Assembly (NCBI GenBank): GCA_965205975.1
Contig: OZ242195.1
Span: forward strand, 2,656,001 to 2,720,000
Length of the DNA: 64,000 nucleotides
Source: Candidatus Latescibacterota bacterium
GTDB lineage: Bacteria; Latescibacterota; UBA2968
Direction: 5' to 3'
The notes under the pieces are model-generated. The model made no database searches, was not told where the DNA came from, and saw only the letters and a list, made by a program, of their open reading frames with translations. Both the position numbers and the translations under genes were made by a program. Positions 1,093 to 41,026 of the stretch are shown here, piece after piece (position 1 is the first letter of the stretch; each line of letters begins with the position of its first letter).

Positions 1093-1872
1093 CTATTTCG
1101 GAGTTTCCACCTGCCAAATCGGATACCGTATATCTGCCCGCTGCATCTCTCGTTGCAACCATTGATTAAACAGAAGCTTTCGGATCTCCTTTGCTATCCG
1201 CCCGTCCAGCATTGTCGGATAGAGTTCCTGTAATAAATACAGCGCAAAGCCTTTCGATACTTTTTCTGGACCAAAAATTTCACCTATCGAAGCGGCAAAC
1301 ACGCGCGCAGCAATCCCCTTTGGCAACTGCTTCCGCCGAACACGACCCAAAAAGCCACTACCTGATCGCGTGTGTGCATCTTGAGAAAACCGACGCGCCA
1401 TCGCGTGAAAATCTGCACCTTCTTCCCGTATCTGCAAATCAACCTCGTCGATCACATCCTTATCCATGTGAAAAATCCAGCAAATCTCCGCCTCATCAAA
1501 TTCCAGCGTGTGCTGTGCAAAATAGGATTCGACCTGCCCCTCGGCGATCTTCTCAGACAGCAAATACTCCAGTCGCCTCACCTCGGCATCTTCTGCCACA
1601 TCCTGAAGTGTAATACCCCGCTTTGCAAGATAGGCTTCTGTATCTTCTACCCGCTCCAAACGATGTTGATACCGCCAGTCATTCACCTTGCGCTGGATAT
1701 CCTCCGGCGCTGCACAAACACCCTCGCGTCGGGCGAGTTGGCGTATCAATTCTCTACGCGCAAATTCATTAAAAAAATGCAGATTATCAGCAACACCCAA
1801 TTGTCGCACGACATGGTGCAACGACACCTCGACATCATTGACCTGAACCAGTATAGCATCCTCTGACATCAC
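1093..1872 (-). CDS. PpiC/parvulin-type peptidyl-prolyl isomerase (SurA/PrsA-like) associated with a peptidase ABC exporter
   Basis: Rotamase motif ADFHAMARRFSQD...GSGFLGRV...IFGPEK...GF after a helical N-domain; no signal peptide; overlaps the HlyD stop (ATGA coupling). Confidence 0.8.
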   Translation of the reverse strand: MMSEDAILVQVNDVEVSLHHVVRQLGVADNLHFFNEFARRELIRQLARREGVCAAPEDIQRKVNDWRYQHRLERVEDTEAYLAKRGITLQDVAEDAEVRRLEYLLSEKIAEGQVESYFAQHTLEFDEAEICWIFHMDKDVIDEVDLQIREEGADFHAMARRFSQDAHTRSGSGFLGRVRRKQLPKGIAARVFAASIGEIFGPEKVSKGFALYLLQELYPTMLDGRIAKEIRKLLFNQWLQREMQRADIRYPIWQVETPK

Positions 1873-3254
1873 AACGCCCCCTCTTGCACATCGTATCTCG
1901 CCGACTCGTAAAGCTGTCGCAAAGGAGAAAGCAACATCAGCAAAACCGATTGCCGATCGGTCATAATCTCCGCCGTACCCTTCATGCCGAACATCAAAGG
2001 CTTGTCATATCCCTTCACACGCATCGTATTTTCTTCCAGTTCAACAACGCACTTAAATAGCGGTCCAATACGTTCATCAATCACCGCATCAGGTGAGATG
2101 TATATAAGCCACCCGCGTTTGATGCCAAAATCCTGAAAGGCATAAGCATCGTATTTCAGCTTGACCAACTGCCCGGGCTTGAGCAAACCCACATCTTTAT
2201 TCAACACCATCACCTCTGCAACCATCGGTGCCGAGGTCGGTGCCAGCGCAATTAGAGCCTGCCCCTTGTTGATCACCTGTCCCATCGCATTCACCATCAC
2301 CTGTGTGACAATGCCCGACTCAGGTGCTAAGATCAAATCCGACTCAGCTTCAAGGGTCCGATCAATGCGTTTGCGTGCCTGTTCCAATCGCAACTGTGCA
2401 GTCTCATAAGCGTGTCGCATCTGCGATGCCTCCCGCTCGTGTGCAATACGCGCCTCTGTGATTTGACGCTTGAGATCAGCCACAGCCATTTCATTCTTGT
2501 ATATCTCCGACATGCGCGATGGAAGCGCGGATAGAGCACTCAAATACTGCACACGCGCGCGATTCATAGCCGCCCGGCTGATCAACTCGCGCTCAAACAG
2601 CGTCTTTTGCTGCAAAAACTCCCCTTTCATAAGGTCAATCTCAGCCTGTCGAAATCCAATCTGCGCTTGCAATCCCGCATCAGATGTTTTGCTTTTCGAT
2701 CCGACACCATCCCCCACATCACTGTGATAATCTTCCAATGCATCCTGGTGCGCCTCCATAAACTGCTGCAAAACAGACAGGCGTTGCTCCAATACCCCTA
2801 TCGTCTCTCGATTTAACCTCGCCCTTTGTGGCAACACCGTCTTGAGATCGTACTCTGCCTTTTGAAAAGCCATCTTTGCCTGCTCCCATTCCCGCAACTC
2901 TCCCCAGGTCTCCCACGATTTGAGCTTAAACAATACCTCACCCTTCTCGACATGATCTCCCTCTTTCACGCCAATCAACTCAATCTCACCACCTCGCTGT
3001 GCCTGCATCGTCTTCACCTGTCCGAGGGGCACCAACCGAAAAGGGGCTGATGCCACCACATCCACCTCGCCCCACCACGCCCAGGTAATGGCAACAATCA
3101 CAAATAGCAGGACAATATAGAGCAATGCACGACCCCAAAAGGGCCGCAAGGATCCCATAAACGCATGCACCTCTTCTGCCGCGTCATCTTGTCCCTGAAT
3201 GATACCGGGAGACATTGTTTCTGCTGGTGTCTCCAAAAACCGTTCTGCCATCAT
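1869..3254 (-). CDS. HlyD-family type I secretion membrane fusion protein
   Basis: N-terminal TM helix, lipoyl-like motif GVKEGDHVEKGEVLF, long coiled coil, APESGIV and GMKGTAEI motifs. Confidence 0.93.
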   Translation of the reverse strand: MMAERFLETPAETMSPGIIQGQDDAAEEVHAFMGSLRPFWGRALLYIVLLFVIVAITWAWWGEVDVVASAPFRLVPLGQVKTMQAQRGGEIELIGVKEGDHVEKGEVLFKLKSWETWGELREWEQAKMAFQKAEYDLKTVLPQRARLNRETIGVLEQRLSVLQQFMEAHQDALEDYHSDVGDGVGSKSKTSDAGLQAQIGFRQAEIDLMKGEFLQQKTLFERELISRAAMNRARVQYLSALSALPSRMSEIYKNEMAVADLKRQITEARIAHEREASQMRHAYETAQLRLEQARKRIDRTLEAESDLILAPESGIVTQVMVNAMGQVINKGQALIALAPTSAPMVAEVMVLNKDVGLLKPGQLVKLKYDAYAFQDFGIKRGWLIYISPDAVIDERIGPLFKCVVELEENTMRVKGYDKPLMFGMKGTAEIMTDRQSVLLMLLSPLRQLYESARYDVQEGAL

Positions 3255-6200
3255 ACCACCTGCAACTGTTGACTACACATGTGATAGTACAAACCCTCTT
3301 GCACCATCAACTCATCGTGTGTGCCCATCTCCACAATATGACCCTTGTCCAGCACCACAATCGCATCCGCATCGCGCACCGTACTCAACCGATGGGCGAT
3401 AATCAATGCCGTGCGATCATCTAAAAACAGATCTAAATTCGCCTGAATCACCTGTTCCGAATCCGTATCTAAGGCATTGGTCGCCTCATCAAAAATCAAA
3501 ATTTTCGGATCGCAATACAGCGCCCGTGCAATCGCAATCCGCTGCCGTTGTCCACCAGACAGCCCCACACCCTGCTCACCCACCTTTGTCTCATAGCCCA
3601 AAGGCATATCGCTCACGAAATCGTGGACACACGATAGCTTTGCCACTTCCAAAATGCGGTCCATGTCCGCATCTGACTGACCAATAGCGATATTTTCTGC
3701 AATCGTGCCAGAGAACAAAAACGGCTCCTGCATCACCATACCCACCTGTCGCCGCAACCAATGAGGGTCCAGATCCCGCACATCCATACCATCTAAGGTC
3801 ACGCGCCCTTCTGACGGATCAAATAAACGAGGTACCAGCTTGACCAACGTGGTTTTACCCGCGCCACTACGTCCCACAACCGCAACTTTTTGACCCGGCT
3901 CAAGAATCAGATCAATGTTATTCAACACATACGGTTCATCAGAACCGACACCATATCTAAAAAATACCCCCTCAAAAACCACGCGCCCTTCCAAATGCTT
4001 TAAGATCAAACCCTGACCCTGTTGCCGCGCATCCTCCATCTGCGTGTCATACACATCATTCAGCCGATCCAGAGCAATACGCGCTTCTTGCACCTGCGGC
4101 CATATCCCAATCAAGCCCATAATCGGTCCCATCACATTGCCAATCAGCGCATTAAACGCCATCAACTGTCCAACCGACAGATTACCTGCAATCACCAGGG
4201 AAGCACCATACCACAAAATCACCGTACTGCTCAACAAATTGATCACGCTTCCGATCCCCCCAAACAGCATCTGCATTTTTAACCGTTGAAAGCCAATCTG
4301 CATTTCCTTTGTGAACTTACCTTCCCAATGCCACCGTGTCGCGCGCTCAACCGCCTCGGCTTTGACCACATCAATGCCGTGTAGCGAATCAATCAAAACC
4401 GATGATTGTTCGGCACGCGCCAGAAAAGCGCGCTGGCTGAAAGCCTTCAAAATGGGTGTGTAAATCAGCGTGAGACCTATAGAAAGCGGCACAAATATCA
4501 GCATCACCAGCGTCAGTTCGGCATTGTAATAAAACATCAGACCCAGATAGACAAAGAGCATGATAAAATCCAGAACCGCAGAAACCGTCGCACCCGTCAA
4601 CAAACGCTGAATCGTTGCATTCTCCCGAAACCGCGTGGTCAAATCTCCCGTGCGCCTGAGAGCAAAAAACCGCATGGACAGCGCCAATAAATGCCGATAA
4701 AAACGCGACAACATCGCAATGCTCAACCGCGCACTTACATATCCGATTAAATAGACGCGCAACGTTGATGTGCCCATCTGGAACAACGCAACCACGACCA
4801 TCCCTACCAGCATCAAATTCAACAAATCCTCGTCGTGATGCACTAAGACCTGATCGATAATCGTCTGCATAAAAATAGGCGATGCCAGACCGAACAAACT
4901 GAGCACTAAAGACGCTAATAGTACCTCAATCAAAATGCCCCTATAAGGCCGGATCAATGGAAAAAACCGCTTAAAAGAAGACTGGGACGGTTCGTTCTCT
5001 GCCACCTGATCCGTGTATTCCAACAACAGCGCCATGTTCGTCCACCCCTTCTCAAACTCTGCCCGCGACAGCTTGCGAATGCCCACACCTGGATCTGCTA
5101 TCTTCACCTCCCTTTTATTTATCTGATACAAGACCACAAAATGATTGCCTTCCCAGTGAAGAATGGCTGGCAATTCTGTCCGCATCAGAGCTTCATACCC
5201 CGTGCGCACACCGCGCGTGACAAAACCTATGGTTTCCGCAGCCTCGGCCAAAGCCGCCATCGACGTGCCAGAACGCGACACATTGGACATATCGCGCAGC
5301 CTGTTCAACCCAATAGGCATCTTGTAATACTTACAGATCATGCCCAAACACGCCGCGCCACAATCCGATTGATCGTGTTGCTTCAAGAATGGGAAGCGAA
5401 ACCAAGTGGATGGTTTTGCACCGTCTATTCTGATATTAACCACATTGGATGCTGTATTGGATACCGTGTCTTCTTGGATAACAGATTGCTCAACCGGTGT
5501 GGCCTCTTGATACCCCGATGGGGACAGGGCTTGCCGATCATCCCGTGCCTGTCTAAACCCTGCTCCATTCGTTCGCTGTTCTCCGCGCGATATGCGGCCT
5601 GCCTCCAACGCAGCCTCAAATCCCGGTATCATAGCTTTTAACTTATTAAAATCGCTTTTATCTATGTAAAAAAGCACACTATCACGCCGAGTGCGAATGA
5701 TCGTTTCGTCATCTCTACCATCGCCAAAATAATCCCCCGGGCGTAGAATCACCGTATTCCCATTTTCCAACACCGCCTCCAACTGACCGCTGCCAATCAA
5801 ATAAAATCGCTGTCCGAATTGCCCTTGATCAACAACGGTCACACCCTCCTCAACCGCCTCGCGCTTTAGCCGCGCGAACAACACCCGCATCGCCTCGCCC
5901 GGAACATCCCCTTTCAAAAACCGCGTAAAATCCCGATACGCAATACAGGCAACCTGCTCTTCAAGATATGCCCTTACATCAGAACTTTTTCTCACAGCCT
6001 TAAAAAATTCATCCTTCGGCACCTGCAACATCTCCGCATCCTCAACCGCTCGCACCGTTGCCCGATGCCCCTGCCTGCTCAACAGTGCCCCTTCGCCAAA
6101 ATGATCACCCGCATACAAATAGCCCACGGTCATCGAATTGCCATTCCCATCCTGCTTCATCACCCGCAACCGTCCAGACTGCACAATGTAAAACGCCTCA

Positions 6201-6295
6201 CCTTCTTGCCCCTGTTGAAAAACAACACCTCCAAAGGGAAAGTGAACAGATTGTGACCGCACCGAGTTTTTAATGAAAAAATGCGAAAGATTCAT
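3251..6295 (-). CDS. Peptidase-containing ABC transporter: two cNMP-binding domains + C39 peptidase + TMD + NBD
   Basis: cNMP motifs (FYIVQSGRL..GDHFGEGAL..RATVRA; FYLIGSGQL..GDYFG); C39 with intact Cys/His/Asp (QSDCGAACL, HWEGNHFVV, IADP); Walker A GRSGAGKT, LSGGQ, DEAT. Start set at ATG 6295 (GGAG RBS). Confidence 0.95.
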   Translation of the reverse strand: MNLSHFFIKNSVRSQSVHFPFGGVVFQQGQEGEAFYIVQSGRLRVMKQDGNGNSMTVGYLYAGDHFGEGALLSRQGHRATVRAVEDAEMLQVPKDEFFKAVRKSSDVRAYLEEQVACIAYRDFTRFLKGDVPGEAMRVLFARLKREAVEEGVTVVDQGQFGQRFYLIGSGQLEAVLENGNTVILRPGDYFGDGRDDETIIRTRRDSVLFYIDKSDFNKLKAMIPGFEAALEAGRISRGEQRTNGAGFRQARDDRQALSPSGYQEATPVEQSVIQEDTVSNTASNVVNIRIDGAKPSTWFRFPFLKQHDQSDCGAACLGMICKYYKMPIGLNRLRDMSNVSRSGTSMAALAEAAETIGFVTRGVRTGYEALMRTELPAILHWEGNHFVVLYQINKREVKIADPGVGIRKLSRAEFEKGWTNMALLLEYTDQVAENEPSQSSFKRFFPLIRPYRGILIEVLLASLVLSLFGLASPIFMQTIIDQVLVHHDEDLLNLMLVGMVVVALFQMGTSTLRVYLIGYVSARLSIAMLSRFYRHLLALSMRFFALRRTGDLTTRFRENATIQRLLTGATVSAVLDFIMLFVYLGLMFYYNAELTLVMLIFVPLSIGLTLIYTPILKAFSQRAFLARAEQSSVLIDSLHGIDVVKAEAVERATRWHWEGKFTKEMQIGFQRLKMQMLFGGIGSVINLLSSTVILWYGASLVIAGNLSVGQLMAFNALIGNVMGPIMGLIGIWPQVQEARIALDRLNDVYDTQMEDARQQGQGLILKHLEGRVVFEGVFFRYGVGSDEPYVLNNIDLILEPGQKVAVVGRSGAGKTTLVKLVPRLFDPSEGRVTLDGMDVRDLDPHWLRRQVGMVMQEPFLFSGTIAENIAIGQSDADMDRILEVAKLSCVHDFVSDMPLGYETKVGEQGVGLSGGQRQRIAIARALYCDPKILIFDEATNALDTDSEQVIQANLDLFLDDRTALIIAHRLSTVRDADAIVVLDKGHIVEMGTHDELMVQEGLYYHMCSQQLQVV

Positions 6296-6336
6296 TTTTC
6301 TAATTACTCCATTATGTGGATGAGCGCATATCCATC

Positions 6337-7200
6337 TCAATTATCGCATACCGGAGTTTCCTCAAGCTCAACCTCCGCCTCACGGTGATCTGTTTCTTCG
6401 CGCTTTGCCAACTGATAAAACCACCACAACCCAAGAACAGCCAATATTGGTCCGCACACATTCAACCACCACGGATTGTGAACCACAACATTAAAATCTT
6501 CTGAAACTGGAAAACCCGGTACATCGAAATGCAGAAATGTTGTAGCCAGAAAATTGTTCAGAGCGTGTCCCCAAATTGCAGGCCATAAAGACCCCGCTTG
6601 GATGACCCAATAGGCAAAGACAAGCCCTAATACAAAAGCCCCTGGAAATTGCCACGGATTCAAATGTATTAGACCAAATAAAATTGCCGACCACATAATC
6701 GCCCGATTTTGAGTACCATGTGCCAATAAACCTTTCAAGATAATGCCTCTAAAAACGACCTCTTCAATAAAAGGTGCTATCACAACTGCGCCCAATAAGG
6801 CTGACAGATAAGATGTTTTTTTGCCGAAAGATTGATGAAAGATGTCCTGAAATATATCTGGCATTGGCAAAACAGATATAACCGCATTGTACAATTCAGA
6901 AAGAACAACCCCCAGTCCAAAGATAGATAATCCAACGGAAAGCCACATGCGCCAGTCATAGTCTATATTTCTAATCGCAAGAGGCAACATATCTTTCCAG
7001 GTTCGACCCGTTCGATGCGAAATATAGCACAAAATCAGAATAAATTTTACCAACGACAAAAGCCAGAAAGAGTAATCATACTCAAACAAAGGTTTGTCAA
7101 TAATGGCACCTATAATGTCAATCAATATGGTCAAACCAAATGCGATGAGGATATATAATACCAGCAGCCAAACAGACTGTTTCAGATTTGGATACGTCAT
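6337..7200 (-). CDS. CPBP (CAAX/Abi) intramembrane glutamic endopeptidase, possible immunity or processing protein
   Basis: Multi-TM protein with EEVVFRG, FGLIH and GHALNN motifs. Confidence 0.92.
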   Translation of the reverse strand: MTYPNLKQSVWLLVLYILIAFGLTILIDIIGAIIDKPLFEYDYSFWLLSLVKFILILCYISHRTGRTWKDMLPLAIRNIDYDWRMWLSVGLSIFGLGVVLSELYNAVISVLPMPDIFQDIFHQSFGKKTSYLSALLGAVVIAPFIEEVVFRGIILKGLLAHGTQNRAIMWSAILFGLIHLNPWQFPGAFVLGLVFAYWVIQAGSLWPAIWGHALNNFLATTFLHFDVPGFPVSEDFNVVVHNPWWLNVCGPILAVLGLWWFYQLAKREETDHREAEVELEETPVCDN

Positions 7201-7300
7201 CTCTTTCCTTCTTGATAACTGATGTTACGCAGTGGTGAGTTGATTTTTTGTTCAAAGTATGGACAAAAAATCTAATAAGCTGTTTTAAAATTATTGAGAG

Positions 7301-7660
7301 TTAAAAAGTTTCGCGCTTCGCCACCTGAAAAAACCACCACAACCCAATCACAGCCAATAGTACCGCACACACATCTACCCACCACGGCAAAAAGATCAAA
7401 GCTTCTGAAATTTTCCCAAAGCCCGGTATTCCTGATCGTGCCAAGGTAACGGCCAAAAAACTGTTCAGTGCGTTTCCCAAAAGACAAGGCAACAAAGACC
7501 CCGTTTGAATAAACCACCATGCGAATACAAGTCCAAATGTGAAGGCCAGGGGAAATTGCCACGGATTCAGATAAGATAAAAAAAATAAAATTGTCGACAA
7601 AATAGCGGCCTGAGACTTTGAGCAACAGACCAATAAACCACCTAAAATAATGCCTCGGAT
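7301..7660 (-). pseudogene. C-terminal fragment of a second CPBP paralogue, truncated at the IS3 end
   Basis: RGIILGGLL...YLNPWQFP.AF..GLVFAWW.IQTGSL.P...GNALNS parallels the 6337-7200 protein; both catalytic His are replaced (H>Y, H>N); the N-terminal half is absent. Confidence 0.82.
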
Positions 7661-7701: not shown

Positions 7702-8610
7702 CTAAGGGTCAGTCGTGATATTTCTCATAAGAATGGCCTGCACCACTTCTTGTGGCGTCTGGTAGCCCAAGGCAGAATGCCTTCGATCTTGATTGTAATA
7801 CGTCATTTGTTGCCCAATCACACAAATCAGTTCTGTCAAAGCGTCTGCGTGCATAATCAACGTTTTGTTTTCGGTCTTAAAACGTCCCCAAAAGGACTCT
7901 ATCCACGGATTATCTTTTGCCCCATTCATCGCAAAAGAAATCCCTGCACCTTCTCTTATCAATACACGGTGTAACCAGTCGTATGAGGTGTAAACCGAAT
8001 CGCGGTCGTGATGAATGAGGATGTCAGACAGTCTCCTGTCCAAACAGCTCAGGTTGTTTTGCAACTGGTCCAGACAGTATATCGCCAGGGCACGGTTGCG
8101 ATGTGCGCCTACGCCAAAGCCTGCGATCCACCTTGTCTGGATGTCCAAAAAGGCCATTAACCACGCTTTTTTCTGTCCTTGGCAATAGAACAATTCTGTA
8201 AAGTCGGTGCAAAAGACACGCAAGGGATCAATGGTGCGGTTCTGGACTAAATTAGCGTCTTGTCCGACTTGGCTTATCAGCTTCAATACCGGATTCTTGC
8301 CGCGTTTTGGCAGATGACGAGGTAAGTCTAACTCATAAGTTGACAATAGCTTACGCAACCGCTTATGATTGATCACGATGCCAGTACGGGCTTTTATATC
8401 TTCCTTGATGCGACGATACCCATAATCAGGATGATGCCTGATCGTCGTGATGATCTCATCCTTTATCTGGGCATCTTCACCCGAACAAGAGGCCCGACCG
8501 CGACGATAGGCAAGCGTCCCTTTCGACAAGCATAGGGCACGGCAGCACATATTTAGACCATACCTGTCTTTATGCCTCTCGACCAGTTCTACTTTGTCTG
8601 ACACGCTCAA
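7702..8610 (-). CDS. IS3 transposase OrfB (rve DDE domain)
   Basis: YGYRRI HTH_21 motif, CTDFTE, HHDRDSVY, DNPWIESFWGRFKTE, YYNQDRRHSALGY. Confidence 0.93.
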   Translation of the reverse strand: MSVSDKVELVERHKDRYGLNMCCRALCLSKGTLAYRRGRASCSGEDAQIKDEIITTIRHHPDYGYRRIKEDIKARTGIVINHKRLRKLLSTYELDLPRHLPKRGKNPVLKLISQVGQDANLVQNRTIDPLRVFCTDFTELFYCQGQKKAWLMAFLDIQTRWIAGFGVGAHRNRALAIYCLDQLQNNLSCLDRRLSDILIHHDRDSVYTSYDWLHRVLIREGAGISFAMNGAKDNPWIESFWGRFKTENKTLIMHADALTELICVIGQQMTYYNQDRRHSALGYQTPQEVVQAILMRNITTDP

Positions 8611-8891
8611 CGGTTGCCTAAAAAATTTTTGAGCAGAGCCAGTTCGACTTCTTTCTGACCTAACAGGCGCTCCAGATCAGACACACGCGCTTCATACGTC
8701 TTGACCGTATCGTTGCCAGAGAAAATCTCTGCACCACTGTCTATAAACTGACGCTTCCAATTTGATAGACTCACCGGGTGCACATCGTAAGCGCGAGCGA
8801 TTTCTGCATCCTCTTTGTCTGAGGTCAGTGCTTCTAACACGATCTGGAACTTGAGTTTAGCCGAGTAGGACTTCTTGGTTTTCTTACCCAT
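8607..8891 (-). CDS. IS3 transposase OrfA (HTH)
   Basis: YSAKLKFQIVLE..IARAYDVHP..LSNWKRQF followed by a leucine zipper; GGAG RBS. Confidence 0.92.
   Translation of the reverse strand: MGKKTKKSYSAKLKFQIVLEALTSDKEDAEIARAYDVHPVSLSNWKRQFIDSGAEIFSGNDTVKTYEARVSDLERLLGQKEVELALLKNFLGNR
8619..8625 (-). promoter_or_regulatory. Programmed -1 ribosomal frameshift heptamer T TTT TTA joining OrfA and OrfB
   Basis: OrfA ends AAT TTT TTA GGC AAC CGT TGA; a -1 shift gives TTT AGG CAA CCG TTG AGC GTG, in frame with OrfB. Confidence 0.7.
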
Positions 8892-9138: not shown

Positions 9139-9696
9139 CTACTCCTCTTTTTTTTGAAATATTTGAGCTATACCAAAAGCTGTAGGATGTCCTATAACGA
9201 TACATTCTCTATTAAATTTTCTTAGTTTTATAAGATCTGAGATATCTTTAGCACTAATTGCGAGCGCAAAACTCAATATATTGGCGGACCAATAAGATAA
9301 AGAAAGGCAAAAAAGTACTATACAAATACTGCCAGTAGTGATGAGAGGGGTAATTAATGCTTTTCTTTGACAACCTACTGAAACAGGGACCTTACATGCA
9401 CAAAATAGCACTAACCAGTATATATAAAATCCGAAATAGATATTATCTCGATCAATTTTTCCCAATTTGTGGTAAGCGACAAAATGAGAGAGTTCATGTA
9501 TAACTAAGATAATAAGAGCTGCAAGAATCATTGTTAAATAATCATCTTCCCATTGGACCTGAATCTTTTGTTCCTCCAAAAAGGAAAGTATCGACAAAAG
9601 AAAAATTAGCATGCTTGAATAAATGAGAACAGATGTGCCCCAAAGAACAATCAGGTTTGTTTTTATTTCGCCAACTTTATGTAGTACTTTTTTCAT
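9139..9696 (-). CDS. Membrane HExxH metalloprotease-like protein (DUF3267/zincin-like)
   Basis: TM helices with VIHELSH, followed by ALITPL and a D-containing late helix (SAKDISD); AT-rich gene. Start at ATG 9696; the track starts at 9747. Confidence 0.65.
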   Translation of the reverse strand: MKKVLHKVGEIKTNLIVLWGTSVLIYSSMLIFLLSILSFLEEQKIQVQWEDDYLTMILAALIILVIHELSHFVAYHKLGKIDRDNIYFGFYIYWLVLFCACKVPVSVGCQRKALITPLITTGSICIVLFCLSLSYWSANILSFALAISAKDISDLIKLRKFNRECIVIGHPTAFGIAQIFQKKEE

Positions 9697-9884
9697 ATAT
9701 AACTCAAGTTGTGTGGTATAGCGTAGCCATACTATAGGCCAAGACAAAGAAGCCCTTGCTGGTAACTTCAGGTTGTGGACACAGCGTTTTCGGGTGTGAA
9801 TCTGCTGTCTCCAATTTACATTGGAGCCTCTACTATTTCAACTAAGATAGGGACAATACCCAGAATAAGATGAAAGTAGAGAGA

Positions 9885-9920
9885 GTCGATGTCAAACCAC
9901 ATATGTAATTTGACATCGAC
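9885..9920 (-). terminator. Stem-loop downstream of the precursor genes (terminator, attenuator or mRNA stabiliser)
   Basis: Perfect 12-bp IR GTCGATGTCAAA / TTTGACATCGAC, 15 nt after the stop at 9936; pyrimidine-rich tail on the minus strand. Confidence 0.65.
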
Positions 9921-9935
9921 AAACAGTACTACAGA

Positions 9936-10307
9936 TTAATCAATAAGATCACTAACAAAATCTACGGCCGCATCCACACCTGCTTTAATCTCTTCCTTCC
10001 AGGTACCAGCAGCTACAGCTACAGCTGCAATTGCAGTTATAATAGGTGCTGCCCCTCCTCCTCCTGGCCCTGCGTTGTTTATTGTTGTGGTTGTGCTGTT
10101 GATAGTAACCATAACAGGTGGAGGCAGGAATTCAGATAGGAGCTCAACCAAAGGATTTGGTCCCAGGGGGACAACCATACGACCACCACCTACAACGTCT
10201 TGCATTTTCGGCAAATCCAACAACTTGTGTTTTACCTGCAATTTCGTACAGGTAACAAATCCTTCATCCGGATTCGTGATAATTCGATCAGTCTGTGTTT
10301 GAGTCAT
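9936..10307 (-). CDS. Putative precursor peptide C (41-aa double-glycine leader + 82-aa core)
   Basis: GGGAGG RBS; leader ends L(-12)..M(-7)..V(-4)VGG; shares RII.xP...VTC..L with precursors A and B. Confidence 0.75.
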   Translation of the reverse strand: MTQTQTDRIITNPDEGFVTCTKLQVKHKLLDLPKMQDVVGGGRMVVPLGPNPLVELLSEFLPPPVMVTINSTTTTINNAGPGGGGAAPIITAIAAVAVAAGTWKEEIKAGVDAAVDFVSDLID

Positions 10308-10414
10308 GATATCCTCCCAAAATAAATGAAGCAGAATTTATAACAAACTTTTCCACCTAAACTGGCCAACATATTCACTTTGCCAAATACTTATCGGGTT
10401 CTGAACTGTATTGG

Positions 10415-10633
10415 TCAGGGAAAAGGGTTAAAGATATCTTCCAAAATATCGTCCAAAATATCGTCCAGCGTCGGGTCAAAATCCTCACTGGTATCATCAC
10501 CTGGGACCGGGAAACATCCATCGGTACCAGAGATCCGAGCAATTTCAAGCCTATTCAAATCACTCGTTTTAATCGGCAGATTGGTCACACCTGTGACCGA
10601 TTGCTCAGGAATTGATATAATTCGTCTCGCCAT
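10415..10633 (-). CDS. Putative precursor peptide B (37-aa leader ending GT + 35-aa acidic core)
   Basis: AAGGAGGTG RBS; leader L(-12) E(-8) I(-7) I(-4) G(-2) T(-1); core DGCFPVPGDD...LDDILDDILEDIFNPFP. Confidence 0.78.
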   Translation of the reverse strand: MARRIISIPEQSVTGVTNLPIKTSDLNRLEIARISGTDGCFPVPGDDTSEDFDPTLDDILDDILEDIFNPFP

Positions 10634-10721
10634 TCTTCCTCACCTCCTTTCTTTACTGCCTCAGCGCAAATCGCTGAAATGTCGAATTTTGCGAAACGTT
10701 CTGTGGATCGTGGCACGATTC

Positions 10722-10946
10722 CTACCAAGAATCCCACCATTCACTCACTGTATCTTCGACATAATCCACCGCATCTTCGATATAATCAATAATATCTTCA
10801 AAGAGCTCAAGTGGATCTTCTCCTGGCAAAATGCATCCTCCTGCTGCATTCGCCATCTCACCATGTGCCAGTTCTATTTCTTGACCGGGGAGTTGAACAC
10901 AGGTCACAGAAACTTGTGCTGGCATTGATGTAATGCGCTTCGTCAT
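10722..10946 (-). CDS. Putative precursor peptide A (37-aa double-glycine leader + 37-aa acidic core)
   Basis: AAGGAGGTG RBS; leader ends ELAHGEMANAAGG; core CILPGEDPLELFEDIIDYIEDAVDYVEDTVSEWWDSW. Confidence 0.82.
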   Translation of the reverse strand: MTKRITSMPAQVSVTCVQLPGQEIELAHGEMANAAGGCILPGEDPLELFEDIIDYIEDAVDYVEDTVSEWWDSW

Positions 10947-11000
10947 TTTCTCGCACCTCCTTTCTTTTCCACCTCAACATAAGCCATATCCCTTCGCCAA

Positions 11001-12404
11001 TCAGGGAGCCGTGAGCATATCGCTGAAGTGTCGGATTTTGCGAAGCGTTTTGTGGGCTGTCGCGCGCGTTTCACATAAACCCAACAGGACGGCTTCGACT
11101 TCGTTTGGGTGTAAATGTTGCATCAAGTGAAGGCCCAGGCCTTCAATAAGGGACATATCTTGTCCCAAAAACGAAATGCGCGGCAATGGGCCTTGCACGC
11201 TTCCCAAATAGTTAAATCCCTTAGACACACTTTGCGGCACACCAGATACATCACAACCCTGTGTAAAACTCACGGTTATTGGTATCGGGCAGGCGGGTGC
11301 ATCGCGTTTGATCCGCAAATTTTCAAACAGTGCCATGTGCTGCTGCGCCGTGTGATCCCAGGAAAATTCGAGCGCGCGTTTGCGAGCACCCTCTCCCAAT
11401 TTCTCCCGCTCCGTTTTGCTATTCAACAAATCGCGTACAACATCTGAAATCACCTCAGGAGCGATATAACCCGTCACATTCAATGGCTCATCTTCAAACC
11501 GCTCAATCTCTATCAACCGCCCACAACTACCCAACAACTCTGGCGCACCCGCAAAATTTGTCGCCACAACCGGAAGACCACACGCCATGCCCTCTATCAC
11601 AGTTGAAGGACACGACTCATACGAATACACCGACAACGCGCACAACACATCCAGCATATTGTAATACAGCGGCATATCCGTATAGGGTTGCGCGCCCAAA
11701 AATATCACATTGGGCGAATGTGTCACAGGTGCGAACTGCTTGCCAATCACCGCAAACAACACATTGGGATTCAGATCGGCCATTCGCAAAAACGGATACG
11801 CACCCTTGCCCGGCTCAAACCGCCCACAAAAACCCACCACAGGCATCTCCAAAAAGCGTTGATCACCCGTCTTATCCGCGACCTCTTTGCGCGCTTGCAA
11901 CTTATCCATCGGCACAAACACCTCGGCATCTACCCCATTGGTAATAGGGCGCAAATACGATCGGTCAAACACCAGCTTGCCCACTTCCTCAGCGACATAC
12001 GCCGACTTGGGGGACAAAGCATCATAAGGCCGCAACAGCGAATAACATTGAAGCACCTTATCCATAAAATCGCGATTGCGTCCAAAAGAACACGACAGCC
12101 GAATCACAATGGGCGCGGGACACACATGGCGGAAAAATGCCAGGTCATCTACCCTGGGTTCAAACATCAGCACACCATCAAAATCCTGCCGCACAAACCA
12201 CTGGCGCGACGTATCAATCGTCTCAAATGCGGGTTGAATACCGTGCATATTCGGACCATAATCCACCGCTTCAGACGCTGGCATATACACCTCGCAATAC
12301 TTCGATAACGCCTGCACATGGTTAAAACCCGAAAGGGACGCCCCGCTATTCGACGCCATCACTTTCTCGCAGTCGTGATACGGGTGTGACACATAAATTT
12401 TCAT
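11001..12404 (-). CDS. GT4 glycosyltransferase with a ~95-aa C-terminal extension
   Basis: ITNGVD, GFCGRFEPGKG, E-x7-E motif ESCPSTVIEGMACGLPVV, FSWD; extra domain after the GT-B fold. Confidence 0.9.
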   Translation of the reverse strand: MKIYVSHPYHDCEKVMASNSGASLSGFNHVQALSKYCEVYMPASEAVDYGPNMHGIQPAFETIDTSRQWFVRQDFDGVLMFEPRVDDLAFFRHVCPAPIVIRLSCSFGRNRDFMDKVLQCYSLLRPYDALSPKSAYVAEEVGKLVFDRSYLRPITNGVDAEVFVPMDKLQARKEVADKTGDQRFLEMPVVGFCGRFEPGKGAYPFLRMADLNPNVLFAVIGKQFAPVTHSPNVIFLGAQPYTDMPLYYNMLDVLCALSVYSYESCPSTVIEGMACGLPVVATNFAGAPELLGSCGRLIEIERFEDEPLNVTGYIAPEVISDVVRDLLNSKTEREKLGEGARKRALEFSWDHTAQQHMALFENLRIKRDAPACPIPITVSFTQGCDVSGVPQSVSKGFNYLGSVQGPLPRISFLGQDMSLIEGLGLHLMQHLHPNEVEAVLLGLCETRATAHKTLRKIRHFSDMLTAP

Positions 12405-12416
12405 CTTTCACCTCAT

Positions 12417-14969
12417 TTAGACTGATTCTATAAACTTTCGCGTTTGCTCGGCACCATCCATGGACAGATGGTGTTCGGACACAGAACTTTCGAGCATTTC
12501 GGCAATAGCTTTTGCCATCTTTCCCGTACCTATTTGATCGGGGTGTATCACCCCTGCAATACCCAACGCCATCAACTGCTGCGCGCGAAATTCCTGATCA
12601 TCCATTGCAATACTCGGCACCAGAATCGACGGGGCCTGTGTCTCGAGCACATTCATACACGTATTGTAGCCCGCCCGGCTAATCGATAAATCCGCGTGTT
12701 TCATCCACGCCAAAAAATTGGACGTAAAGCGCTCAAGGCGAAACGGACCATCACCGCATAACGCGCGCAAAGCCTCAAAATGCGTTTCATCGATAAACGC
12801 ACCGGCAAAAATCACCATCTCGCGTCCATCGTGCGCAACGTCCTGCTCCAATTGTTTCCACGCTTCAATACAAGGTGCAATAAGCGCAAGCCCCTCAGCC
12901 CCGCCACCAGCACTGACCAACACATACCGATCAGGCGCAGGATCAGGTCGAGATACGTCCTCGAGTTTCTCAGAGATAAACCCCGTATAAACCACGGGAA
13001 TATCGATATCACCAGTCCAGGGAAAGTGATCTTCCAGCCGGGACAATTTGGAATCGCCATGCACCAATACCGCATCGAAATACTGATTCAACACGGGCAC
13101 GACCTCCTCGTAATACTGCCGATTAAAAGCCAAATACTCGTGATGTATCCCGCCAAAAGGCACCGAATAAAACCGCATCGCATCTCCATCGCGTCTCTGG
13201 GTAAGCGGAAAAGTCAGTTGCAACGCATCGCTTTTTGCCCGCGTTGGAATATCGCGCAGTGAACACAGCACCTTCGCGTCGGGATTGACCTCATTGAGCC
13301 TGACAATGGTATTGAGGATCTCGTTCTTGAGCGACCATCGGGAAAAGGGAAAAAACTCAACACAAAACACATCGGGACGAATCTGCTCCATCACGTCGGC
13401 AAGCTGTGTCTGGCGCTCGCGCATAACAGCCTGCAAATCGCGCTCCTTATCAACAGACTCAATACCCTGCGCACCCGTGCGAAGCGGCGGCAGAGGAATA
13501 CGTACCACTCCTTCATCGAGATCAGCTTCGGGAATTGGTCGCCCGCCATCGATAAAAAACACATCGCATGTCTTCACCAGTTCATTGACAATCTGTCGAT
13601 TGCGAAAATGGTGCCCAACGCCAATGAGGTGCTGGCTGTAAAATGCAACGCGTGTGCGGGTTTTTGCTTGTTGATTAATACATTCCATACGGGCAGGACA
13701 AACGGCTATCGCGGCCTCATAGATCCCGCGATAGCGTTCCACAACCTGCCTCCATGTGTGCTCTGACCGCACCCATTCGTTGCCCCCTTGCCCCAATTGC
13801 ATCCGCAGCGAGGGATTCTCGATGAGTTCGGCACACGTCTGGGTGAGACTTTCGACATCATCTGCCACAAAAACGCGCCCGGTTTCGCCGTCTGTAACCA
13901 CCTCCTTGAGTGCGGCTACATCGCTAACGACAACGGCTTTTTCCATCGCCATTGCCTCATAAGGCTTCATCGGCGTGACCAGTTCGGTAACGCGGCTACG
14001 CGTACGCGGAATAACAAAAACATCTAACATCGCGTAATATGCAGCTATTTGGTCGTGCGGTATTTCACCCGTAAAAATCGCCACATCCGCCAGACCGCGT
14101 TCCTGTGCTTCGCGCTGCAATGCTGGCAGGTCTCGTCCACCCCCCACAATCAACACTTTGAGATTGGCATACTGCCCGCGAAGAACCTCACACGCCTGCA
14201 ACAACAACCGCAATCCCTCCAGTGACCGCACCAGACCGATATAGCCCACCACCACATCTTCCGGTTCAATCCCCAGATCATTGGCAAGTTCGCCTGACCG
14301 ATTTTTGGGTGCATATTGCTCAACCGCCACACCATTGGGCACTACGCCAATTTTCTCTTCGTCAACCCCCTCGCGTATGCATTCTGCTTTCAACACCTCG
14401 GACAGCGTCACCACAGCATCGGCTCGTTGCATCGCATTGACATGTTGCGCGTGTTGCTGGCGATACACCTCTGAATCGGGAGCCAGCATACCCTGCGCCA
14501 CACCGCTATCGTGCCACAAACCCCGCACCTCGTACACCACAGACAGACCACAGTGATGTCCTATATCAATCGCAACCTGTGCATTTCTACCCGGTGACGC
14601 CGCGTGCAACACATCGGGTTTTTCTGTCTCAACAGCCCGCGCAACGCGTTTGCGAAAGTGTTGCTCCTGCCCCACACGATAGATTCGTGGGGTATCTGGC
14701 AATTGAAATTTGCCCAGACGTTCGGACAGACGTGCTGTGTATGCTTCAGAAGTATTTCTCAAATAAGGCACATCATTGATATATTCAATATCATCAGCGA
14801 GTTGCTCAGACACACCCCAGCGCGTGAGCACCACAGGATCAAAGCCGAGCGCTTTCTGCGTATTGATGATATACTGGCTTCGCAAACTGTAGCCGCTTTG
14901 TCGGTGTGGCAGCGAAACATCCAGAATATGTAATATCTTCATCGGCATAGGATTTTCAAATTGTCTCAT
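12417..14969 (-). CDS. Fused two-module glycosyltransferase: N-terminal GT4 + C-terminal GT28/COG4671-like
   Basis: N-half KILHILD.SLP..SGY..R, YEVRGLW, VPNGV, PMKPYEAMA; C-half FYSQHLIGVGH, EFFPFSR, VSAGGGAEG, SISRAGYNT. Confidence 0.88.
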   Translation of the reverse strand: MRQFENPMPMKILHILDVSLPHRQSGYSLRSQYIINTQKALGFDPVVLTRWGVSEQLADDIEYINDVPYLRNTSEAYTARLSERLGKFQLPDTPRIYRVGQEQHFRKRVARAVETEKPDVLHAASPGRNAQVAIDIGHHCGLSVVYEVRGLWHDSGVAQGMLAPDSEVYRQQHAQHVNAMQRADAVVTLSEVLKAECIREGVDEEKIGVVPNGVAVEQYAPKNRSGELANDLGIEPEDVVVGYIGLVRSLEGLRLLLQACEVLRGQYANLKVLIVGGGRDLPALQREAQERGLADVAIFTGEIPHDQIAAYYAMLDVFVIPRTRSRVTELVTPMKPYEAMAMEKAVVVSDVAALKEVVTDGETGRVFVADDVESLTQTCAELIENPSLRMQLGQGGNEWVRSEHTWRQVVERYRGIYEAAIAVCPARMECINQQAKTRTRVAFYSQHLIGVGHHFRNRQIVNELVKTCDVFFIDGGRPIPEADLDEGVVRIPLPPLRTGAQGIESVDKERDLQAVMRERQTQLADVMEQIRPDVFCVEFFPFSRWSLKNEILNTIVRLNEVNPDAKVLCSLRDIPTRAKSDALQLTFPLTQRRDGDAMRFYSVPFGGIHHEYLAFNRQYYEEVVPVLNQYFDAVLVHGDSKLSRLEDHFPWTGDIDIPVVYTGFISEKLEDVSRPDPAPDRYVLVSAGGGAEGLALIAPCIEAWKQLEQDVAHDGREMVIFAGAFIDETHFEALRALCGDGPFRLERFTSNFLAWMKHADLSISRAGYNTCMNVLETQAPSILVPSIAMDDQEFRAQQLMALGIAGVIHPDQIGTGKMAKAIAEMLESSVSEHHLSMDGAEQTRKFIESV

Positions 14970-14999: not shown

Positions 15000-15410
15000 T
15001 TATGAATTTTTTTGAATAAGGCTTTCGCATCTCACTTTTGCGCGGTAAGCGGTAAGAGACATGTCATTTACCTTCTTAAACACCTCACAAAAATACTTTG
15101 AGGACCGATACCCACACGCACTTGCAACCTCATAGGTCAGCAAGGATTGTTCACCTATCAAGTGCTGTGCATGAGCAATTCTGATCTCTCTCAACTTTTC
15201 TCGGAAAGGCTTGCCAACATGCTTTTTGAACAAGGCACTCAGATGCGTTCTGGAAAGTTTGAAATGATCTACGAGATCACTAAATTTGAGGTCCGGGTTG
15301 CTGTAATGCGCCTCCAAAAAGGCTTCAAACGCGATTTTCCAACTCGAATCTGATGGGATATGGGTTTTGACCTTCGCCAAAAACTTGCTCCTTTCAACTA
15401 CACTATTCAA
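15000..15410 (-). CDS. AraC-family regulator consisting of the HTH domain only
   Basis: LSRTHLSALFKKHVGK...RIAHAQHLI...EVASACGY....YFCEVFKK...S..AYR. Confidence 0.88.
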   Translation of the reverse strand: MNSVVERSKFLAKVKTHIPSDSSWKIAFEAFLEAHYSNPDLKFSDLVDHFKLSRTHLSALFKKHVGKPFREKLREIRIAHAQHLIGEQSLLTYEVASACGYRSSKYFCEVFKKVNDMSLTAYRAKVRCESLIQKNS

Positions 15411-30910: not shown

Positions 30911-31081
30911 ACGACATACATGTTCTCCTTGCACATCAAGCATAACGTTAGTAAAATATCAACATAGAAAACTATATTGGGCTGATCTCTATACTGCTTC
31001 AACCAATCTCTCCCCACAGTATCTCTTTCGTCATATAAAATTTATTTTTTCTGTTTCCATACTCACAATTTGGGGGATTCA

Positions 31082-32134
31082 ATGTCCAGGAGTGAGGGTT
31101 TTCAGATCGCTGATGTGACTATCTTTAACCAGGATGTTTTGGAATTATATGACCGCTGGAAAACACCAGATGTAATTGTTTCTGATGGAGGTTATGGTGT
31201 ATCCGGCTTTAAGAAAGATGCGAAAGAGCCTTCGACGCTAACAGCCTGGTATCAACCACACATTCAAGCATGGTCCCAACATTCCAGACCTGGTACGACA
31301 CTCTGGTTTTGGAATACAGAAATCGGATGGGCGACTGTACATCCTCTGTTAGATCGCTCTGGATGGGACTATGTGTGCTGCAATATTTGGAATAAGGGCA
31401 TACAGCATATAGCTGGAAACTGCAATCTTCCAGCTCTAAAAGGTTTTCCAATTGTCACAGAAGTCTGCGTCCAATACGTTAGACGTCCAGAATTTCAAGT
31501 TGAAGACCAGATATTGACCTTGAAGAGATGGTTGCGATTTGAATGGGAGAGAACCCAACTCCCTTTATACAAAACCAATCAAGCATGTGGTGTGGCCAAT
31601 GCTGCAACACGGAAGTATTTTACAAAAGATCATCTGTGGTACGCACCTCCTCCCGAACTTTTTGCAAAACTGGTATCCTATGCAAATCAACACGGCGAGG
31701 AAAGTGGTAAGCCTTATTTTTCCGTGAATGGAAAGGAACCCCTTACACAAAAAACATACGAACATTTCTTTGCAAAATTTAAGGGCAAATACGGTATAAC
31801 CAATGTTTGGGATCACCCTCCGCTTCACAATCGTGAAAGAGTCAGATTGCCGGGATCATCAAAATATGCCCATCTAAATCAGAAGCCGCTACAACTGGTG
31901 AAAATGCTGCTGGAAGTATCGTCTGATCCCGGTGGCGTTATTTGGGAGCCATTTGGAGGTCTATGTACTGCTGGAATGGCTTCATATCTTACCGAAAGAC
32001 ACGCTTACTGCGCCGAAATTGACAGTGAAATTTACCAGATAGCAGTTGATCGAATAAAATCACATTCCGTTCCACTGCTTGACGTATCTGAAAAAAATAA
32101 GGCAAACAAAGGAGCCGTAGATATCTATGCCTGA
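31082..32134 (+). CDS. N4C/N6A DNA methyltransferase (beta-class motif order) with variant motifs
   Basis: Motif IV-like VSDGGYG near the N-terminus; H.NQKP; motif I-like IWEPFGGLCT; AEID. Confidence 0.82.
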   Translation: MSRSEGFQIADVTIFNQDVLELYDRWKTPDVIVSDGGYGVSGFKKDAKEPSTLTAWYQPHIQAWSQHSRPGTTLWFWNTEIGWATVHPLLDRSGWDYVCCNIWNKGIQHIAGNCNLPALKGFPIVTEVCVQYVRRPEFQVEDQILTLKRWLRFEWERTQLPLYKTNQACGVANAATRKYFTKDHLWYAPPPELFAKLVSYANQHGEESGKPYFSVNGKEPLTQKTYEHFFAKFKGKYGITNVWDHPPLHNRERVRLPGSSKYAHLNQKPLQLVKMLLEVSSDPGGVIWEPFGGLCTAGMASYLTERHAYCAEIDSEIYQIAVDRIKSHSVPLLDVSEKNKANKGAVDIYA

Positions 32135-33062
32135 TGTTCCGATAAAGTTTGAACCAGACCCCGAATGGCCCCACTTTAAGGTGTGGGAGCGAATAGATGA
32201 TGTTATCTACTCAATTCCCGCTCACTTCGAAACAGAATTGCTCATAAAAGGAATCAATGTCACTGAAATATTTTCAGTTGGAGGCGCATTTGCTTCAGTC
32301 GTCGAAAACCAGGTTGTAAATATACTCAACAGTTTGCGAAATATATGGGATCCAGATAGCGAATATGCTGATTATGCGTTTGTCAGACAATCTCAGACTT
32401 TTCCCGATGTTTTGCTGAGAAGTCTTAGAGATGAAAATGAGATCCTATTCGGTATTGAACTCAAATCCTGGTATGTACTCAGTAAAGAAGGTGAACCGAG
32501 TTTCAGATATCAGGTGACACCTGACGCCTGTGCCCCTGCTGATTTTATTGTCATTATTCCCTGGCTATTGTCAGAAGTCATTTCAGGTACACCCAAACTT
32601 CTGATTCCTTACAAAGAATCGGCCAGATTTGCTGCTGAGTACCGAAATTACTATTGGCAAAATTCACGCCAAGAGAGGGATGAAAATCCCGACATCCAAG
32701 CACCACCTGAAGAGTATAGACATCCTTATCCGAGCAGCAAGCAAGAATCATCTGATAAAGCCGCAGCAGATAAGGGTGGCAATTTTGGCAGGATTGCCAG
32801 AGCGGGAATTCTCGATACATTCGTAAACAAGATCAAATCCCTTGATTATTTGGGAATAAAAATTATCCATTGGATTATGTTTTTCAAGGCGATTTCAGAA
32901 ACCAGTACAGATGAACAAATCGGCAGAAGACTACAAACATTAAAATCTCAAATTCAGGCTGATATGAGTGAATCTGAAAAAGATAAAAAGAGCTTTGAGT
33001 ATAAAGAGTCGTTCTCTGATTTAATACAACAACTCGAAGACCTATGGCAAAAATCTTCGTGA
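32127..33062 (+). CDS. Putative type II restriction endonuclease (PD-(D/E)xK)
   Basis: FPDVLL...GIELKSW; overlaps the methyltransferase by 8 bp. Confidence 0.7.
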   Translation: MPDVPIKFEPDPEWPHFKVWERIDDVIYSIPAHFETELLIKGINVTEIFSVGGAFASVVENQVVNILNSLRNIWDPDSEYADYAFVRQSQTFPDVLLRSLRDENEILFGIELKSWYVLSKEGEPSFRYQVTPDACAPADFIVIIPWLLSEVISGTPKLLIPYKESARFAAEYRNYYWQNSRQERDENPDIQAPPEEYRHPYPSSKQESSDKAAADKGGNFGRIARAGILDTFVNKIKSLDYLGIKIIHWIMFFKAISETSTDEQIGRRLQTLKSQIQADMSESEKDKKSFEYKESFSDLIQQLEDLWQKSS

Positions 33063-33197: not shown

Positions 33198-33439
33198 TGT
33201 TTAGATATAACTATTTATTAATCAATAACATAAGAGCCAGTCTGAATTTCTTTTGTACCGTATACGGGATACAAGGGGGACTGTAGCTACCGAGACGAAA
33301 ACACAGGCGAGATCCGCGTTACCGGTGAGAACACAGAAACGCAGGTATGGCGACATCGGGGTGGAGCCGGGTCGAAAGCGCGCATCATCGTGGAAACAGC
33401 GAGGTGACCGCAGGCAAAATTGATGAAAGGAGGGACAAG

Positions 33440-40733: not shown

Positions 40734-40922
40734 ATGAACAAGATATGATACATCTTAATTTTCTCAACACTGCTATTTTCAAGCTCGGATGCGGAACAGG
40801 GCGAGGTAGGATATGTAATCAAGCCCCAATTTGATGATGTTGGGTCTTTTTCAGAAGGCCTGGCTCCTGTAAAAATTGGTTACAAGTATGGGTATATCAG
40901 TAAGGCGTCTTTTGAGAAATGA
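40734..40922 (+). pseudogene. WG-repeat protein remnant
   Basis: Manual translation MNKI*YILIFSTLLFSSSDAEQGEVGYVIKPQFDDVGSFSEGLAPVKIGYKYGYISK: stop at codon 5 and a single WG repeat. Confidence 0.72.
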
Positions 40923-41026
40923 TGGCGTGCTCCCCTTTTGGTTTTGGATCCTGGACATCATCCGTAAACACAGTCCTGACGCCTACGCTAAGATCATGGA
41001 AAAGAGTAAAGAAAGGAGGTCTAAAG

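Follow-up and report, generated by a model that had tools for sequence, protein, structure and literature searches.

The locus described here lies in a 64,000-nucleotide stretch of the genome of a Candidatus Latescibacterota bacterium, hereafter the window, where minus-strand genes encode, in this order, an AraC-type DNA-binding protein, a fusion of a GT4 and a GT28-like glycosyltransferase, a second GT4 enzyme with an additional C-terminal domain (the tailed GT4), three small precursors termed A, B and C, a DUF3267 peptidase, an IS3-type element, a CAAX fragment, a CAAX protease, an ABC transporter, an HlyD-type adaptor and a PpiC-like protein (Table 1). An AGGAGG ribosome-binding site precedes the starts of both A and B, and the C39 domain of the transporter has intact Cys, His and Asp motifs. 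A plus-strand ORF of 182 aa that runs across A and B was discounted as a shadow frame, and positions 9700-11100 hold no excess of promoters or terminators. No receiver domain was found in any frame upstream of the AraC gene; its relatives at loci L006 and L024 are receiver-AraC response regulators. The IS3-type element (7702-8891) sits between the DUF3267 gene and the N-terminally incomplete CAAX gene (7301-7633), and the accessory part of the cluster may be disrupted in this genome.

Table 1. Features of the precursor cluster, with positions in the window
Feature	Position	Strand	Remarks
AraC-type DNA-binding protein	15000..15410	-	136 aa
GT4 plus GT28-like fusion	12417..14969	-	From domain scan
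GT4 (GT-B) glycosyltransferase (tailed GT4)	11001..12404	-	E-x7-E (263-271), R-x4-K (195-200); lineage-specific C-terminal domain of ~100 aa
Precursor A	10722..10946	-	ORF of 74 aa: 37-aa leader (ends AGG) and 37-aa acidic core
Core A	10725..10835	-	Starts after AAGG; Cys +1 at 10833-10835; ends with two Trp and a Trp
21-bp tandem repeat	10751-10799		Within core A helix; 2.3 copies, 75%
Motif DTVSEWW in A	10734..10754	-	Candidate acceptor Ser 10743-10745
Degenerate copy of GT4 3' end	10666..10717	-	A-B spacer; 42/52 nt identical to 11015-11066
Precursor B	10415..10633	-	72 aa: 37-aa leader (ends SGT) and 35-aa acidic Pro-rich core
Core B	10418-10522	-	Starts after ISGT; cut chosen to fit family leader register; Cys at 10514-10516
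Motif DDTSEDF in B	10478..10498	-	Candidate acceptor Ser 10487-10489, sole Ser of core B
12-bp tandem repeat	10434-10467	.	2.8 copies, 95%; codes LDDI-LDDI-LEDI in B; copy number differs among relatives
Precursor C	9936..10307	-	123 aa; A/B leader family; Cys-free core with hydrophobic Gly/Ala segment
Ser motif in C, two copies	10125-10145, 9942-9962	-	DFVSDLI seen by eye
DUF3267 putative zincin membrane peptidase	9139..9747	-	Weak LiaK-like match, E 0.0098
CPBP/CAAX protease (6337-7200) and CAAX fragment (7301-7633)	6337..7633	-	Candidate immunity or processing genes
Peptidase-containing ABC transporter	3251..6340	-	Two cNMP-binding domains, C39, membrane and ATPase domains
HlyD-type adaptor	1869..3254	-	TIGR01843 above cut-off
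PpiC/rotamase-like protein	1093..1872	-	Pfam Rotamase; TIGR04500 below cut-off

Core A carries 13 D/E in 37 residues and core B 12 in 35, neither has a Lys or Arg, and the net charges are -13 and -12, so that the original prediction of K/R-free cores with about one-third acidic residues is confirmed. Set against ten long ORFs of the window (13.1% D/E, 10.7% K/R), the binomial probability of such acidity is 5e-4 for A and 1e-3 for B, and that of having no K/R 0.015 and 0.019. The 12-bp unit expected at 10431-10466 beneath LDDI-LDDI-LEDI was found as well, slightly displaced. Both cores had been read as amphipathic helices built from micro-repeats, which holds for A, where a 29-residue segment has a hydrophobic moment of 0.555 at 100 degrees, equalled by 0 of 10000 shuffles, and 14 acid pairs stand at i,i+3/4, but only in part for B, whose core has five Pro, a helical part of 14 residues with its peak at 90 degrees (131 of 10000 shuffles match it at 100 degrees) and a repeat of slippage-variable length. 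Likewise, of the common beginning C-x2-3-PG(E/D)D, Cys +1 is right for core A, but the one Cys of core B is residue +3, after D-G. The leader of A contains a second Cys at residue 16 (window 10899-10901), three residues before an invariant Leu, and on inspection by eye most leaders other than those of B have a Cys at this place.

None of A, B and C matches a Pfam or NCBIfam family at E 0.1, and when 44 aligned precursors were compared with NCBIfam, each family hit was matched by a single precursor (best E 0.016). Among solved structures, no relative was found with the precursor profile (best E 0.7). In the Atlas, the first match for A is a 'Bacteriocin' cluster without a family name (0.83), which we treat as a lead only.

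The tailed GT4 gave 46 protein matches, and the comparison below is based on 26 full-length loci among the 78 fetched, leaving out L027-L078 (52 of 78), which align at 24-34% identity over the GT domain only. Of these 26, 25 are labelled Latescibacterota or Latescibacteria and one simply 'bacterium'; the window and its Latescibacterota relatives are 83-93% identical. One to six precursors lie directly downstream of the GT in 25 of the 26 loci, down to 52% GT identity, a GT28-like gene lies upstream in 24, the GT28-like half being the part retained in all 24 loci having the fusion gene, and an ABC/PCAT gene is reached in the fetched DNA at 20 of the 25 precursor loci. Locus L002 carries a 93% identical tailed GT4 (L002:10001-11404), but neither a precursor nor a second GT nor a transporter lies within 10 kb of it. 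No plasmid copies of the GT were found at E 1e-20. At three divergent loci an M16 peptidase pair, an S41 peptidase and a TPR protein sit between precursor and transporter (L020:12452-15243, L021:16192-17268, L024:12018-13286).

Among these loci the leaders are conserved and the cores hypervariable: 141 cores (2 of 143 were shorter than 20 aa and omitted) fall into 21 types. All 143 precursors fit a register of L(-19), L(-12) and G(-2), which was imposed, and residues that were not imposed are conserved too in the 112 distinct leader tails, namely E(-8) in 88, M/I(-7) in 99 and G/A(-1) in 94. B has Thr at position -1 and some relatives have Leu there, so the exact cut sites are putative. Leaders and cores have been swapped between types in P0090, P0105, P0137 and at L012. 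The degenerate copy of the GT4 3' end that lies between A and B scores 64, where the best of 1000 shuffles scores 30, and has similar counterparts at L010 and L026, which we interpret as a trace of cassette duplication in which GT and precursor evolve as one unit. A further arrangement is seen at L014:11329-16636, where three tandem cassettes each consist of two precursors and a CAAX gene, the first precursor being near-identical and the second variable. Double-glycine precursor cores, as proposed for A and B, are borne out, and by their sequences A and B are real, strongly acidic double-glycine precursors of an undescribed Latescibacterota cluster.

Protein searches returned 66 matches for A (itself included) and 26 for B. 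Removing six members of other core types left 60 A-type cores, through a filter that let Cys or Ser at +1 pass; 56 of them are K/R-free, D/E makes up 27-36%, and amphipathicity is kept in 60/60 over lengths of 25-44 aa. Among the B matches, 25 of 26 are K/R-free and 24 have an early Cys, and an LDDI-like unit occurs 0, 1, 2 and 3 times in 3, 11, 6 and 6 of them. Across 50 locus cores, 44 are net negative, 20 K/R-free and 12 Cys-free under an earlier cut rule that is off by at least one residue, so the acidity foreseen for homologues holds within each of the two types and the helical periodicity within the A type, but neither does so family-wide. Cores at L014:14408-14797, L014:16271-16636 and L021:11890-12156 carry at their ends five to seven Cys and then DD, possibly a metal-binding or thiol-rich type.

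What these otherwise unrelated cores share is a short serine motif, [DE]x-hydrophobic-S[ED]x-hydrophobic, which 119 of the 141 cores carry and which is represented at 21 of the 25 loci. It was first spotted by eye in A, B and C and then tested, on core types that are not independent, and counted by core type it occurs in 13.0 of 21 against 0.26 in shuffles, the Thr version giving 0.0 and the Cys version 0.3. SE is also the top of 400 dipeptides (z 5.2; the shuffled maximum has a 99th percentile of 4.82 and a highest value of 5.44). The Ser stands two residues before WW in 71/71 A-type cores having WW, and three residues before [FY]DP in 27/27 B-type cores, in 23 of which it is the sole Ser; a Ser of some kind is found in all 50 locus cores, 12 of which lack Cys. 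Codons of the motif Ser are AGY in 24 cases and TCN in 19, split by core type, and the use of both codon families argues for selection on Ser or repeated origin. That said, 12.7 of 21 types (2.97 in shuffles) also have this frame with a residue other than Ser, and much of the excess of the full motif can thus be put down to helical acid periodicity. Its position differs, within the helix in A and between prolines in B. The motif is absent from 4 of 25 loci, and one core type, at L017:7248-7700 and L022:11543-11884, is the only one without even S[ED], and its member at L017 is cationic (+10) with Gly/Lys/Thr micro-repeats. We regard the shared Ser, not the Cys, as the likely site of sugar attachment.

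The candidate enzymes for this step are the GTs of the cluster, whose three domains are all GT4 or GT28-like. The model of the tailed GT4 (pLDDT 92) matches retaining GT-B enzymes such as MshA, the best structural matches of its GT-B domain being the small-molecule and lipid enzymes MshA, GlgM, BshA and PimB, and we take its E-x7-E and R-x4-K to be donor motifs. The GT28-like half of the fusion gave only weak GT1/MurG matches. In the model the tail consists of strands followed by three helices. Modelled in isolation (pLDDT 65) it had no Foldseek match at E <0.001 and nothing in Atlas or Pfam, and its best fold match, found among helical bundles, was a ribosomal protein (Z 7.4, rmsd 2.4, 49 residues aligned). 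A profile of the tail found 6 proteins among 1.84 billion representatives, four of them family members or fragments, and by these profile searches the tail is confined to the Latescibacterota peptide-cluster family. The other two tail-profile matches, P0141 (19 short stretches, no Pfam) and P0143 (PKD repeats), were discounted as spurious matches due to repeats.

A distant relative, P0046 (566 aa, 31% identity), combines an RRE-like N-terminus with a GT4 domain and a similar tail. Its N-terminal stretch resembles that of a radical-SAM peptide maturase (NF040492, E 5.8e-6; PqqD, E 0.17), its C-terminus aligns with the tail of the window GT at 39% over 44 columns (E 6e-4, probability 29%), and together the N-terminal stretch and the shared tail helices tie the GT family to peptide substrates. 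P0046 looks like the RRE-glycosyltransferase fusions noted without characterisation by RRE-Finder (10.1101/2020.03.14.992123), whereas the window GT lacks such an N-terminal recognition element; the P0046 type looks like a sister family of peptide glycosyltransferases. A complex model of the tailed GT4 with precursor A scored 0.37 against 0.00 for the best of 3 controls (contact agreement at least 0% and partner pLDDT at least 35 in the runs), which supports the pairing weakly. The mark for such models is one that 116 of 157 solved complexes and 2 of 215 mismatches attained, but only 18 of the 157, and both mismatches, did so at scores of 0.60 or less. We name the tailed GT4 a candidate peptide glycosyltransferase. 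GtfA, an enzyme of family GT4, provides a precedent. It is a retaining enzyme that builds alpha-linked glycans on serine-rich proteins (PMC6291802), and a GT4 is also present in the cacaoidin cluster (PMC8068269), the one precedent found for such an enzyme in a RiPP cluster, where Cao24 is proposed to add a sugar of the Tyr-linked disaccharide on a lanthipeptide. Our system resembles both in retaining GT-B chemistry on or near a peptide; however, the substrates of GtfA are large SecA2 proteins (PMC6291802), and neither Cao24 nor GtfA is accompanied by the A/B leader, the transporter or the tail domain.

Directly readable in the DNA are the genes, the shared leader, the intact C39 transporter, the adaptor and the fixed linkage to two GT-B enzymes. 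Beyond these, we give close to an even chance to the reading that A and B are interchangeable cassettes encoding GT-tailored, double-glycine exported peptides that are predicted to be O-glycosylated on Ser. The tailed GT4 would bind the precursor in the cytoplasm and put a sugar, with configuration retained, on the Ser of the shared motif, the GT28-like/GT4 enzyme would lengthen the glycan, and the C39 domain would cut after Gly-Gly in A or Gly-Thr in B and export the core. Outside the cell, the acidic face of A would fold only with cations or a membrane, its hydrophobic face might lead to self-association or surface binding, and the Cys would be a type-specific feature (homodimer or metal ligand) and not a modification site of the family. 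A and B may then act as surface, recognition or helper peptides beside hydrophobic killers such as C. The broader version of this proposal is plausible, and we put it forward tentatively: a new class of glycosylated ribosomal peptides, in which a retaining tailed GT4 recognises a short acidic sequon containing Ser in more than 20 unrelated cores, the glycan is lengthened by a second GT-B enzyme, and duplicated cassettes with swapped leaders and cores give rise to an exported glycopeptide library, A-type members being cation-folded acidic glyco-helices. We infer that the whole works like a class II microcin or a cyanobacterial double-glycine export system with glycocin-like tailoring.

The division of roles between A, B and C is the weakest step of this explanation. 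A CAAX gene follows the array in 4/4 loci with a hydrophobic core against 3/18 without (Fisher p 0.005, for 22 of 25 loci of related genomes and a hydrophobicity threshold of our own choice), and in 0/7 A-type loci reaching the transporter; in the window itself, A and B lie upstream of CAAX genes. CAAX proteins are often, not always, immunity factors (PMC9298176). As CAAX genes track hydrophobic cores and no complete A-type array, we favour A and B as non-lytic companions, and members of the C type as microcin-like killers served by the CAAX proteins.

We consider it unlikely, if well worth weighing, that the peptides are exported unmodified, resembling anionic class II microcins or acting as signals, with the GTs making a small glycoside, a glycolipid or a surface glycan and the SE motif serving as a receptor, transporter or secondary-protease site. 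Classical class II microcin leaders are about half of 37 aa long, and class IIb microcins carry a glycosylated siderophore. Our cluster is like class II microcins (PMC10233263) in its double-glycine leader, C39 transporter with adaptor, product size below 10 kDa and anionic character, and unlike them in the 37-aa leader, the amphipathic acidic rather than hydrophobic cores, the GT-B tailoring genes and the apparent lack, very small ORFs aside, of a cognate immunity gene next to A-type arrays. The premise that acidic cores are untypical of double-glycine bacteriocins finds no support, most microcins being neutral or anionic (PMC10233263), so acidity does not argue against a bacteriocin role, and unmodified export is favoured further by the small-molecule and lipid enzymes among the GT-B matches, by the DUF3267, CAAX, M16 and S41 peptidases that come and go beside the arrays, by the precursor-free GT of L002 and, as a lead, by the Atlas match of A. 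What speaks for modification is the adjacency of GT and precursor, which holds at 25 of the 26 loci and for GTs as little as 52% identical, their joint evolution recorded in the spacer copy, the recognition-element-like N-terminus of P0046 and a motif that is strictly Ser, not Thr or Ala.

A different function with overlapping chemistry would be that of structural matrix or cell-surface peptides, glycosylated or not, with divalent cations screening the acidic face to give fibres or a coat, as with cyanobacterial EbfG; this is a serious rival, though we hold it to be quite unlikely. The trio of a long C39 transporter with N-terminal cNMP-binding domain, HlyD and rotamase/SurA-like protein beside small double-glycine arrays does occur in groups I, II and VI of the cyanobacterial bacteriocin clusters (PMC3140520; EbfG/PteB, PMC4997328), the double-glycine peptides EbfG1-4 require a C39 transporter for biofilm (PMC4997328), EbfG1-3 form amyloid (PMC9981879) and a microcin forms biofilm fibres (PMC13188072). 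The 14 acid pairs of A, its amphipathicity kept across core lengths of 25-44 aa and the absence of CAAX genes from 7/7 complete A-type loci would suit such a coat. However, the diversity of the family, with 21 unrelated core types, swapped leaders and cores and as many as six cassettes at one locus, suits competition or recognition better than a conserved matrix protein. B, moreover, has no long helix, and no sequence match to the library families was found. Our cluster also differs from the cyanobacterial groups in its Latescibacterota host, a leader outside the library families, fixed GT-B genes and a Ser motif in otherwise unrelated cores; the word 'glycosyltransferase' is absent from the available text of PMC3140520, and A, B and C, having no Pfam or NCBIfam match at E 0.1, include no precursor of the NHLP, Nif11 or HetP type. 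As to cations, neither A nor B has a canonical EF-hand, DxDxDG, RTX motif or GGxGxD repeat, and the single loose 12-residue Ca2+-loop match in B lacks the loop Gly and contains a Pro, so the suggested Ca2+ binding is not backed by any canonical motif; cation-assisted folding or self-assembly of the cores may still occur.

The earlier suggestion, S-glycosylation of the N-proximal Cys in the manner of glycocins or its use in a disulfide linking A and B into a two-component pair, is improbable. Within types the Cys is indeed conserved, in 71/72 A-type and 27/27 B-type cores, and an N-proximal Cys is enriched over core types (5.5 of 21 against 2.4; 4 of 2000 shuffles). Yet Leu +3 and Pro +4 are as well conserved in the A type (70/72), and one of the 60 A-type cores (P0095) has Ser instead of Cys +1. 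Family-wide conservation fails, as an N-proximal Cys of any kind is encoded at no more than 13 of the 25 loci, while 6 lack Cys in every core, including L009, whose GT is 90% identical to that of the window, and with GT-B enzymes in place of the glycocin GT2 this disfavours Cys as a general sugar acceptor. The C-x2-3-PG(E/D)D start, kept in 43 of 60 A-type cores, has its PG(E/D)D in only 1 of 26 B matches, the window's own copy, and is a coincidence there. Of the 11 loci with either type, 7 have A-type precursors but no B, 2 have B but no A, and only 2 have both, in either order, which leaves no obligate adjacent gene pair and makes an A-B disulfide hard to sustain; pairing in trans could still occur. 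Two-peptide (class IIb) bacteriocins have GxxxG helix-pairing motifs. Cores A (one Gly) and B (two Gly, six apart) have no GxxxG.

Glycocins (sublancin, glycocin F, thermoglycocin) similarly unite a precursor, a glycosyltransferase that modifies Cys and Ser and a C39 transporter (PMC12457901, PMC11912497), but they use GT2 enzymes, nested disulfides and thiol-disulfide isomerases, whereas here the enzymes are GT4/GT28-like and the acidic, hypervariable cores A and B have one Cys each. No GT2-family glycosyltransferase was found in the cluster, cores A and B, with one Cys each, do not provide for two or more nested disulfides, a second Cys occurring in only 21 of 60 A-type cores, and no thiol-disulfide oxidoreductase gene occurs among the 16 ORFs scanned around the array; lacking all three, the cluster is not a glycocin cluster. 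Finally, it is hardly credible that acidity and repeats are slippage artefacts of decaying or non-coding DNA, as the variable copy number of the 12-bp and 21-bp units and the IS3 and CAAX fragment at the locus might suggest, in view of the strong ribosome-binding sites, 66 and 26 protein matches with conserved ends, and amphipathicity in 60/60 A-type cores.

The predicted feature is real; the ideas attached to its Cys, to PG(E/D)D and to pairing are poorly supported, and the finding of note is the precursor family with its Ser motif. No description of the cluster was found in the literature searched, with supplements and subscription journals outside its scope, and the available text of the sponge papers PMC12993501, PMC9426513, PMC11832590 and PMC12426817 gives only generic RiPP-like or RRE counts, or nothing. 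The lineage is uncultured, and Latescibacterota are known from sponge and marine habitats as sponge symbionts, according to papers on the phylum (PMC12993501, PMC9426513) and not from the window sequence, and have been flagged as biosynthetically rich, although few products have been assigned to them (PMC9426513). Glycosylation is uncommon among ribosomal peptides, and the enzymes characterised for it are mostly the GT2 transferases of glycocins (PMC11912497). If our reading is true, a GT-B peptide glycosyltransferase that takes very different cores via a seven-residue sequon would add a new route of peptide tailoring and be of use in making alpha-linked glycopeptides, and Latescibacterota would gain a concrete product family missed by Pfam and NCBIfam; the cluster is small, complete and expressible.

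Elsewhere in the window, three mutually similar, secreted-looking proteins are encoded at 33347-34255, 37215-38273 and 40919-41857, which presumably resemble members of the formylglycine-generating-enzyme family. Between the first two, a membrane protein (34475-36055) has a seven-residue repeat, in some ten copies, close to its C-terminal third, and an overlapping gene pair at 31070-33062 resembles, we assume, a DNA methyltransferase with a restriction-type partner.
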